Assembly: GCA_000146465.1 (NCBI GenBank)
Contig: CP001944.1
DNA: 64,000 bases
Direction: 5' to 3' (one strand)
Below the pieces are notes generated by a model. That model was given only the letters and a program-made list of their open reading frames with translations. It had not been told where the DNA came from and did not search any database. A program made the position numbers and the translations under genes. How positions within the stretch are numbered: position 1 is the stretch's first letter; each line of letters opens with the position of its first letter. This document shows, piece by piece, positions 9,252-56,878 of this stretch.

Positions 9252-9345
9252 CTCGTTCTTGATCTTGTATACCTTCTGCCAAGAAATGCACAGAGTAGAG
9301 CCAATGCAAGTACATCATCATTAGTGAAAAATTTATCCCTAGAGA

Positions 9346-42739: not shown

Positions 42740-42930
42740 ATCTCCCCTTTAGAGATCGCATTTATCTCTGCAATAACCAATCAAATCGCTACCCAGCCTT
42801 CAAACTAATTATCGAGACCATCTTCAATTTGTTTAAAAATAGAAACCTTTAATATCCAAGGCAATTTAAGCGTAATTGTCTAAATTTAGCAACCTAGATG
42901 AAATAAGAAAAGCGAAGGAGGGGATTCATT

Positions 42931-46289: not shown

Positions 46290-46353
46290 TTTCTTTGCAA
46301 GGGGGAAATTTTTGTCTTCTTCTGTTTCGCATACTGTGCGCATGGTTGTAAGC

Positions 46354-46704: not shown

Positions 46705-46765
46705 GGCAAAGGACCGGGTTTCTGGTGTGCAGATATATCTGGATTCTAACGACCCCAAAAATTTT

Positions 46766-49479: not shown

Positions 49480-49683
49480 TTCCCTCCCTTCTAGCGGGGT
49501 TGTTTATATTTCTTTTGTGATCAATCAGATGGTCTGGGAGAAAAGGGGGAGAGACAATGAATAGGAATGCAGTATCACGAGTTTGGGCTGAGCCATAGGA
49601 AGTAGAGGCAAGGAGATGTAGAATAGCCTGAACTACGGGGAGTTTTGAGGCTCTTGATTTTTGAGAAAAATGGATCCCTACGA

Positions 49684-53546: not shown

Positions 53547-53586
53547 GGCTGTCAAGGGTCATACGAACCAAAAAATTTAATGACTA

Positions 53587-54303: not shown

Positions 54304-54448
54304 GGGTTTCCAGGTTCTGTTTAGTTTCTCACAGGAGCATCCTTGGTTTGTTGGAAGAAGAAGGTAACAGGAAAAAGAAGCCACAGACATGTGGAAAGCT
54401 AGAAGTATTGCTGTGTGTGGAGAAGACTGGCCAGGTTTTATTTGAAGG

Positions 54449-54465
54449 AAAAATTTGCCCTTCAA
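54449..54465 (+). promoter_or_regulatory. AAATTT plus CCC upstream element of beta-tubulin ('tttgaaggaaaaatttgcccttcaaATG')
   Basis: Matches the RPS14 upstream element at 23 of 25 positions. Confidence 0.55.
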
Positions 54466-55785
54466 ATGAGAGAAATCATACACTTGCAGACAGGACAGTG
54501 TGGAAACCAGGTAGGATGCAAGTTTTGGGAGACAATCAGCGGGGAGCATGGGATTGACCAGAGCGGGAGGTATGTTGGGACATCTGACAACCAGCTTGAG
54601 AGGGTGAATGTCTACTATAATGAGGCATCCTCGAAGAAATACGTTCCACGAGCAGTTCTGATTGATCTTGAACCTGGAACCATGGATGCAGTTAGGCAGG
54701 GGCCATTTGGAGAATTATTCAGGCCAGACAACTTTGTGTTTGGGCAGAGCGGAGCAGGAAACAACTGGGCAAAGGGACACTATACGGAGGGAGCCGAGCT
54801 TATTGATTCTGTGATGGATGTGGTTCGAAAGGAAGCAGAGTCGAGTGACTGCTTGCAGGGGTTCCAAATCACACACTCTCTCGGAGGAGGAACGGGAGCA
54901 GGGATGGGAACTCTCCTTCTGTCGAAGATAAGAGAGGACTTTCCAGACAGGATGATATGTACATTTTCTGTTGTTCCTTCTCCAAAGGTAAGTGACACGG
55001 TTGTAGAGCCGTATAATGCAACACTTTCAATCCATCAGCTGGTTGAAAATGCAGATGAGACCTTTTGCATTGACAACGAGGCACTGTACGACATATGCTT
55101 CCGAACCCTAAAGTTGAACAACCCTGGGTATGGGGATCTGAACCATCTTGTGTCCTTGGTGATGAGCGGAGTGACAACGTGCCTGAGGTTTCCTGGGCAG
55201 TTGAATGCAGATCTTAGGAAGCTTGCAGTCAACATGATTCCATTCCCTCGGCTGCACTTCTTTGTTGTTGGATTTGCTCCTCTGACTGCTGTAGGCACAC
55301 AGAAATTCAAGACCTACTCTGTCTCCGAACTCACACAACAGATGTTTGACTCGAAGAATATGATGACGGCATGCGACCCAAAGAAGGGAAGATATCTCAC
55401 TGTTGCAGCAATGTTCCGAGGAAAGATCTCGATGAAGGATGTGGATGAGCAGATGTCGATGGTACAGTCAAAGAACAGTTCTCTATTTGTGGAATGGATT
55501 CCAAGTAATGTGAAGACGGCAGTCTGTGACATTGCACCGACAGGCCTCGAAATGTCTGCAACATTTGTTGGGAACACAACATCCATCCAGGAACTCTTCA
55601 AGAGGATTTCGGATCAGTTTACAGTGATGTTCCGAAGAAAGGCCTTCCTGCATTGGTACACAGGAGAAGGAATGGATGAGATGGAGTTCTCGGAGGCCGA
55701 GTCGAACATGAACGACTTGCTTTCTGAATATCAACAATACCAGGATGCAACAGTCGAGGATGCCGAGGAGTTTCTAGTTAATTAA
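54466..55785 (+). CDS. TUB2: beta-tubulin
   Basis: '[17 protein letters not shown]', '[12 protein letters not shown]' and full-length colinearity with beta-tubulins. 440 aa. Confidence 0.95.
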
Positions 55786-56837: not shown

Positions 56838-56878
56838 AGACTGGGGCAAACAATTCATTGGAGGATGATCCTAGACTT

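Follow-up and report, generated by a model that had tools for sequence, protein, structure and literature searches.

Why do the genes for beta-tubulin and for the ribosomal protein RPS14 in Encephalitozoon intestinalis carry almost the same short sequence immediately in front of their start codons? The question arises in a 64-kb window of chromosome III, the whole stretch of DNA that was analyzed, both strands of which were scanned. At each gene, a run of A followed by a run of T (the A/T box) stands close to a CCC triplet, which in turn lies a few bases before the ATG, and we refer to this arrangement as the composite. The start-proximal sequence at both genes is real and under strong selection. 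Both sites very probably represent the start-proximal core promoter typical of microsporidian ribosomal-protein genes, with near-leaderless initiation between the CCC and the ATG. The element is already known and orthologous sites are in print; its presence is ordinary for E. intestinalis. The two sites and the genes that follow them are listed here by position in the window.

54449-54465, + strand: beta-tubulin composite, consisting of AAAAATTT (54449-54456), spacer G, CCC (54458-54460) and TTCAA, then ATG at 54466
54466-55785, + strand: beta-tubulin coding sequence, 439 aa, with Pfam Tubulin and Tubulin_C; the exact protein is in NCBI assembly GCA_051312795.1
36937-36955, + strand: RPS14 (uS11) composite, consisting of AAAAAATTT (36937-36945), spacer G, CCC (36947-36949) and TTCGAG, then ATG at 36956
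36956-37366, + strand: RPS14/uS11 coding sequence, 136 aa, with Pfam Ribosomal_S11

How alike are the two sites? Re-reading of the sequence located both strings of the original prediction upstream of the two genes, at exactly the coordinates it gave, and all of the gene names that it used are backed by Pfam (Tubulin/Tubulin_C, Ribosomal_S11 for RPS14/uS11, Ribosomal_L34e, SPC12, LSM, and zf-C2H2). Immediately 5′ of the A/T box lies TTTGAAGG at beta-tubulin (54441-54448) and TTTGAG at RPS14 (36931-36936). When the two 28-mers are aligned with gaps, 25 of 29 columns match, with two mismatches and two one-base indels. Their description as nearly identical over 25 nt is thus fair but slightly generous, as the exact core common to both is only 15 nt (AAAAATTTGCCCTTC). 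The spacer between the A/T box and CCC is 1 nt at both genes, and the distance from CCC to the ATG is 5 nt at beta-tubulin and 6 nt at RPS14. When the 40-nt upstream regions of the window were compared pairwise (1,175 pairs), no match was longer than this one of 15 nt, the runner-up being 12 nt, and sets of 49 random 40-mers from the window reached a match of that length in 2 of 300 trials. The likeness of the two sites exceeds chance relative to random sequence. Similarity in the outer flank (TTTGA) is limited to E. intestinalis and lies outside the conserved element.

The arrangement has been described in other microsporidia. Peyretaillade et al. (2009, BMC Genomics 10:607; PMC2803860) defined an AAATTT-like box directly upstream of a CCC-like motif, found it at all ribosomal-protein genes and at some highly expressed genes, and reported that it is kept in Antonospora, Enterocytozoon, Anncaliia, and Nosema. 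The CCC motif itself was first noted in Nosema ceranae by Cornman et al. (2009, as cited in PMC2803860), and a general CCC/GGG-like initiation signal is also attributed to Peyretaillade et al. (2012, Nat Commun) where that paper is cited in PMC5499648 and PMC10815200. These signals are now taken as established and are built into the annotation software MicroAnnot (PMC5499648, PMC10815200). The supplementary tables of the 2009 study give E. cuniculi RPS14 (ECU03_0650) as 'AAAAAAATTTGCCCTTCGAGA', and also as 'aaaaaaatttgcccttcgaga', and list 'aaaaatttgcccttcaa' for ECU03_0820, which occupies the position of beta-tubulin (PMC2803860). Both published strings agree with the sequence read from the E. 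cuniculi locus. The suggestion that the element fits the start-proximal signals reported for Encephalitozoon is therefore borne out, since the signal is the same and the orthologous E. cuniculi sites stand in those tables. A layout of A/T box, spacer, and CCC like that at beta-tubulin and RPS14 is found in 38 of 73 tabulated E. cuniculi entries. The E. intestinalis sites share four features of the class: CCC within about 15 nt of the start, an A/T box before the CCC, non-random placement, and conservation in orthologues. The exact match had also been called unusually long, and this does not hold, as such lengths are typical of the class. In the published E. cuniculi ribosomal-protein set with tubulin added, 11 of 2,628 pairs share at least 15 nt; S8/S4 share 17 nt, S14/S26 share 16 nt, and nine pairs, including S14/tubulin, share 15 nt.

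Is the composite placed at random within the window? The gene set comprised 49 codon-scored genes together with orthologue-guided starts, and 2,441 other ATGs served as background. As some curated starts derive from motif-aware annotation, naive first-ATG starts were also used for the statistics. A strict composite (at least three A, at least three T, 0-4 nt of any sequence, then CCC) occurs at four sites only on the two strands. Each stands before a real gene, 5-13 nt from its ATG; the genes are an Rpb2-family gene, RPS14, RPL34, and beta-tubulin, two of which code for ribosomal proteins. CCC is found within positions -1 to -15 at 26 of 49 first-ATG starts, compared with 8.8% of the background (p = 8e-15), and its position peaks 3-6 nt before the ATG across the 49 genes. 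AAATTT lies within -1 to -40 at 7 of 49 starts (1.4% of background, p = 1e-5), and a loose form of the composite precedes 6 of the 49 starts but only 0.3% of background ATGs. Looked at from the box itself, 10 of the 24 AAATTT sites in the window are within 45 nt upstream of a start codon. It had been proposed that CCC or GGG triplets precede most other starts. The CCC part of this proposal stands, but GGG was not enriched before starts in the window (5 of 49, against a background of 11.6%).

Conservation across species provides the further evidence. Dis3/Rrp44 (834 aa) is encoded between RPS14 and beta-tubulin and is 100% identical to the protein of E. intestinalis ATCC 50506. Syntenic loci containing both genes were fetched with its orthologues as anchors; the unkA contig stops short of RPS14. 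The nine taxa are E. intestinalis, E. cuniculi, E. hellem, E. romaleae, Ordospora colligata, and four relatives from public assemblies. Dis3 identity across the compared relatives, out to Ordospora, is 53-77%, and gene order on E. cuniculi chromosome III, from ECU03_06xx to ECU03_09xx, agrees with that of the window. Alignments made with MAFFT replaced ungapped column conservation, which under-scores tubulin and RPS14 owing to 1-nt indels.

In these alignments, the beta-tubulin block AAAA[A/T]TTTGCCCTTC(A)A followed by ATG is invariant in the nine taxa except for the A/T boundary and one single-base deletion, while the sequence 5′ of it diverges freely. In ungapped columns, the mean major-base frequency at beta-tubulin is 0.94 at -1 to -10 and 0.84 at -11 to -20, compared with about 0.5 at typical neighbor genes. 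RPS14 has the same architecture with more drift, its sequence being ...TTTGCCCTTCGAG(A) in Encephalitozoon and TTTTACCCTTCGAAG, TTTTGCCCTTGAAA, and AAATTGCCCTTGT in other taxa. RPL34 retains its A/T box, CCCC, and TTGCAA across taxa, and at ordinary neighbors (a Sedlin-like gene, Dis3, and UCH) conservation is limited to the CCC beside the ATG. The signal can be followed further, to Vairimorpha necatrix, a genome of 29% G + C in which Dis3 is 44% identical. There beta-tubulin again has a T-run with GCCCTT, and it shares 17 nt exactly with RPL34, not with RPS14. What is added here to the published account is that the ribosomal-protein-type signal of beta-tubulin is unusually strictly conserved in Encephalitozoon and Ordospora and is recognizable in Vairimorpha; the lack of GGG enrichment in the window is also part of this modest addition.

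The proposed promoter would be laid out as an A-run/T-run box (AAAAATTT at beta-tubulin), a one-base purine spacer, and CCC(T), ending 5-6 nt before the ATG. RNA polymerase II would initiate in the few bases between the CCC and the ATG, giving nearly leaderless mRNAs. The CCC, which most genes use, would be the general signal for placing the start site; the adjoining AAATTT box may be an addition that distinguishes ribosomal-protein genes and a small number of others, including beta-tubulin, presumably for high or co-ordinated expression. The sequences, their exclusive placement before start codons, and their deep conservation come from the present analysis, and the mapped 5′ ends in E. cuniculi from published work; where transcription starts at the two E. 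intestinalis genes, how the box affects expression, and which factor binds it are inferred.

Does the composite belong to the DNA of the promoter or to the transcript? In E. cuniculi, rapid amplification of cDNA 5′ ends (5′-RACE) placed mRNA 5′ ends 1-7 nt before the AUG, and for L27A, a gene with an AAATTT box (AAAATTTTTATCCCTGAA followed by ATG), the leader is 2 nt and the 5′ end falls downstream of the whole composite (PMC2803860). The composite of L27A therefore lies upstream of the transcript and is promoter DNA. By analogy, the composites at beta-tubulin and RPS14 would be core-promoter DNA upstream of the transcript and not a module of the 5′ untranslated region (5′UTR). The original prediction had left a choice between a core promoter and a 5′UTR module; the mapped end of L27A favors the former and speaks against the latter.

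Several observations weigh against this interpretation. The start sites of beta-tubulin and RPS14 are assigned by analogy with those mapped in E. cuniculi. The Rpb2-family, SPC12, and C2H2 genes that bear the box are not obviously highly expressed, although RPS14 and RPL34 are presumed to be abundant. In the window, AAATTT followed within 0-4 nt by CCC is not in excess, with six overlapping matches compared with 5.1 expected from shuffles; as the count is near this expectation and the strict sites all stand before ATGs, the signal lies in the position of the sites and not in composition. PMC2803860 and earlier work describe long read-through and multigene transcripts with starts far upstream, and the elements need not account for every RNA that covers the two genes. 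A further point concerns the A/T box itself, for which a 'TATA-like' role was suggested by the authors of the 2009 study (PMC2803860). AAAAATTT is without a TpA step and does not fit the canonical TATAWAWR consensus. The distance from the 5′ edge of the box to the ATG is 17 nt at beta-tubulin and 19 nt at RPS14, so that, for any start site before the ATG, the box falls short of a 25-30 bp spacing. Its sequence and spacing exclude the role of a canonical TATA box at -25 to -30. At other genes of these loci, ATAAAT/ATATAAA boxes are conserved farther upstream, at roughly -21 to -41.

Different explanations can be proposed for the shared sequence. One places the function in the pyrimidine tract CCCTTC, which would act like the metazoan TCT or 5′ terminal oligopyrimidine (5′-TOP) initiator, with transcription starting at a C within the tract, translational co-regulation through the oligopyrimidine 5′ end so produced, and a secondary role for the A/T box. 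The TCT initiator has the consensus Y-Y-C(+1)-T-T-Y, which GCCCTTC resembles. Moreover, a T follows the C-run in 51 of 69 upstream sequences of ribosomal-protein type in E. cuniculi, and initiation at the last C would leave a leader of 6 nt, inside the published limit of <7 nt. The metazoan TCT motif of ribosomal-protein genes and its link with TRF2 are summarized in PMC8047918. CCCTTC fits this pattern at beta-tubulin and RPS14, but only CCCT is general among the ribosomal-protein genes of E. cuniculi, where the tract past CCCT is not generally pyrimidine-rich (CCCTGAA and CCCTCGAA are common). CCC precedes most genes and not just those for ribosomal proteins, both in the window and in PMC2803860, and the 5′ end of L27A follows CCCTG and is hence outside the C-run. 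A TCT-like core is unlikely on this evidence. A role for the shared feature as an RNA or DNA hairpin in the control of translation or mRNA stability, with TTTTATTTGAAGG pairing with CCTTCAAATGAGA so as to enclose the A/T box and sequester the AUG, is very unlikely. The inverted repeat in question is present at beta-tubulin.

54436-54448 (5′ arm, TTTTATTTGAAGG) and 54459-54471 (3′ arm, CCTTCAAATGAGA), + strand: tubulin inverted repeat, 13 bp, spanning the A/T box and the AUG

In E. intestinalis the tubulin site folds strongly (-13.2 kcal/mol, z = -4.2; none of 200 shuffles was as stable), and its 5′ arm is largely retained within the genus Encephalitozoon. However, the pairing is interrupted by an uncompensated mismatch in E. 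cuniculi and E. hellem (z about -2.3), and a hairpin is lacking both in Ordospora (z = +0.7), where the AAATTT-CCC block is nonetheless intact, and at RPS14 (z = -0.7). If the 5′UTR is shorter than 7 nt, as mapped in E. cuniculi, the 5′ arm would be outside the mRNA. As a shared feature the hairpin was rejected, being neither conserved across species nor present at RPS14. A T-rich patch conserved in Encephalitozoon, CAGGTTTTATT, overlaps the 5′ arm. A recently duplicated promoter module, or gene conversion between the two loci, which are 17.5 kb apart on the same chromosome, is highly improbable. Such an origin would agree with the confinement of the 13-mer aaatttgcccttc to these two genes among the roughly 2,000 of the published E. 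cuniculi table, and with the slightly greater 5′ extent of the likeness in E. intestinalis (TTTGA). Yet the element is old at each locus, and the longest exact match between the two sites varies from 8 to 17 nt by species (15, 15, 10, 12, 10, 17, 8, and 8 nt). The A/T boundary drifts independently at each locus, with E. hellem, for example, having AAAATTTT at tubulin and AAAAAAAATTT at RPS14. The 12-nt flanks of beta-tubulin and RPS14 match at 2-4 of 12 positions in seven of eight taxa (7 of 12 in the other), and the near-twin of the V. necatrix tubulin site is at RPL34. As for the 13-mer, 11 genes in E. cuniculi have AAATTTGCCC, and one pair sharing the next three bases would be expected by chance. 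Divergence of the flanks, the variable match length, and independent drift of the boundary together rule out a recent duplicate or gene-converted module, and the idea was set aside as largely refuted. The sites look alike because both are near the class consensus A(n)T(n)-R-CCCT, and not through recent shared origin. Finally, a functionless chance resemblance of two A/T-rich, low-complexity intergenic stretches is scarcely credible; the window count of AAATTT with CCC, which is not above shuffles, would allow it, but all four strict sites stand immediately before start codons, where only roughly 1% of positions lie, conservation is deep against diverged flanks, and random 40-mers seldom reach the observed match (the 2 of 300 trials given above). 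Chance was rejected on the positional and conservation data.

What, then, does a tubulin gene do in this company? Within the ribosomal-protein-type core promoter favored here, a more specific proposal can be made, tentatively and with considerable doubt. The ribosomal-protein promoter class may include beta-tubulin as a non-ribosomal, deeply conserved member. The A/T box, about 7-15 bp from the start site and without TpA, would then be read by a dedicated factor or through a compressed pre-initiation geometry, and not by canonically spaced TBP-TFIIB, so coupling the production of tubulin and ribosomes. The membership of beta-tubulin is based on an invariant 17-nt block that extends from Encephalitozoon to Ordospora and on the T-run with GCCCTT in Vairimorpha. 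If true, beta-tubulin and ribosome production would be coupled in these reduced eukaryotes. With its unusually strict conservation, the beta-tubulin site is a clean natural test case for how a compressed promoter works.

Other genes in the window bear the composite or parts of it.

46290-46313, - strand: RPL34 composite, AAAAATTTCCCCCTTGCAAAGAAA, before ATG 46289; Pfam Ribosomal_L34e; kept in 8 taxa
9327-9345, + strand: composite of the Rpb2-family gene (RNA-polymerase second-largest subunit, 1047 aa), AAAAATTTATCCCTAGAGA, before ATG 9346; Pfam RNA_pol_Rpb2 domains 1-7
1391-1411, - strand: looser composite of SPC12, AAATTTTTTGCAAACCCTGAA, before ATG 1390; Pfam SPC12
53547-53578, - strand: looser composite of the C2H2 zinc-finger gene, AAATTTTTTGGTTCGTATGACCCTTGACAGCC, before ATG 53546; Pfam zf-C2H2
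56838-56850, - strand: CCC-only signal of the LSM/Sm-protein gene, TTTGCCCCAGTCT, without an AAATTT box, before ATG 56837; Pfam LSM

At the C2H2 gene, the A/T box and CCC are retained in E. cuniculi, E. hellem, and unkA. Related AAATTT/CCC signals had been reported before RPL34, SPC12, SmD3, and the C2H2 gene; all four strings are present, but that of the LSM gene (SmD3) is a CCC-only site. A different arrangement is seen at a gene for an RRM protein (ATG 46766), where the elements occur in reverse order: GACCCCAAAAATTTT at 46751-46765 (+ strand) abuts the ATG and CCCC stands before the A/T box. This order is kept in seven of eight taxa and departs from the usual layout of A/T box and then CCC. 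The box of this gene is palindromic and could therefore serve the divergent neighbor gene. Conserved blocks of another kind lie further from the start, at about 20-45 nt from the ATG, and resemble CCAAT (ATTGG) and TATA boxes. Upstream of a gene of 228 aa (ATG 49479), at about 49495-49525 (- strand), TGATTGAT...AGAAATATAAACAACCCC is found in all nine taxa, and upstream of PFK (ATG 42739), at about 42760-42785 (- strand), TGATTGGT...GATAAATG is found in most of them.

AAATTT is depleted in the window overall (24 sites compared with 46.9 expected), and inside coding sequences there are 14 sites compared with 31 under codon-order permutation (z = -3.1). Other words are also depleted in coding sequences, including TTTAAA (z = -2.9) and TAATTA (z = -3.1). 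By the same permutation, AATT occurs 190 times in the coding sequences of the window, compared with 302 expected (z = -7.0). AAATTT, TTTAAA, and TAATTA are about 2- to 6-fold low there, a bias that is general and not specific to the promoter box. Avoidance of AAATTT was considered as a sign of function and dropped, as TTTAAA, TAATTA, and AATT show at least comparable depletion. A further candidate element common to the upstream regions, GGYTTTRT or AGGYTTT, about 10 nt 5′ of the A-run, was also discarded; it has 12 sites compared with 7.8 expected, only two of which are near starts.

The signal has practical value for checking gene starts in the window, and in its published form it already underpins start-codon annotation (MicroAnnot). 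It favors ATG 46289 for RPL34, 56837 for the LSM gene, and 58932 for the orthologue of ECU03_0870. More widely, several genes probably begin not at their first in-frame ATG but at one downstream: 46289 (-), 56837 (-), 58474 (-), 58932 (+), 60505 (+), and 36589 (+). These are preceded by CCC or by the composite, and agree with orthologue length or with the E. cuniculi table. In two of the relatives' loci (L011 and L009), the RPS14 starts are mis-called. These loci have other features. The interval 33996-35216 (+ strand) contains a decayed protein-kinase gene, with a single-frame alignment to a 458-aa E. cuniculi kinase (43% identity over 433 aa, E = 2e-87) and 10 in-frame stop codons. The NCBI gene call there is only 76 aa, and in E. 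romaleae the gene is in two parts, of 201 and 224 aa. The decayed gene is probably a pseudogenized paralogue of the adjacent 390-aa kinase (35345-36517). In V. necatrix, a full-length polyprotein of long terminal repeat (LTR)-retrotransposon type (RVT_1, RNase H, and integrase; locus L012, 3597-7021) lies about 1 kb upstream of beta-tubulin, a place where the Encephalitozoon loci are without such an element.

How do these sites compare with systems that are already known? Like the metazoan TCT and 5′-TOP motifs, they are promoter-proximal, specific to ribosomal-protein genes, and have, at or close to the start site, a C with pyrimidines after it. They differ in having no general pyrimidine tract past CCCT and, in the one mapped case, in the position of the start relative to the C-run, and the likeness does not imply homology. 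With the canonical TATA box they share an A/T-rich element upstream of the start site, but the present box is without TpA and without the spacing of 25-30 bp. As in the general CCC/GGG signal, CCC lies 3-6 nt before the ATG at most genes of the window and its position is kept across species; the differences are that GGG is not above the window background and that the present sites form a subclass with an additional AAATTT box. The closest system is the signal of Peyretaillade et al. (2009), which has the same order of A-run/T-run, spacer of 0-2 nt, CCC, 3-8 nt, and ATG, the same gene class, and the same position, so that nothing essential separates the two. That paper makes no comment on beta-tubulin as a non-ribosomal bearer, and the footprint of the signal through Encephalitozoon, Ordospora, and Vairimorpha is assembled here.

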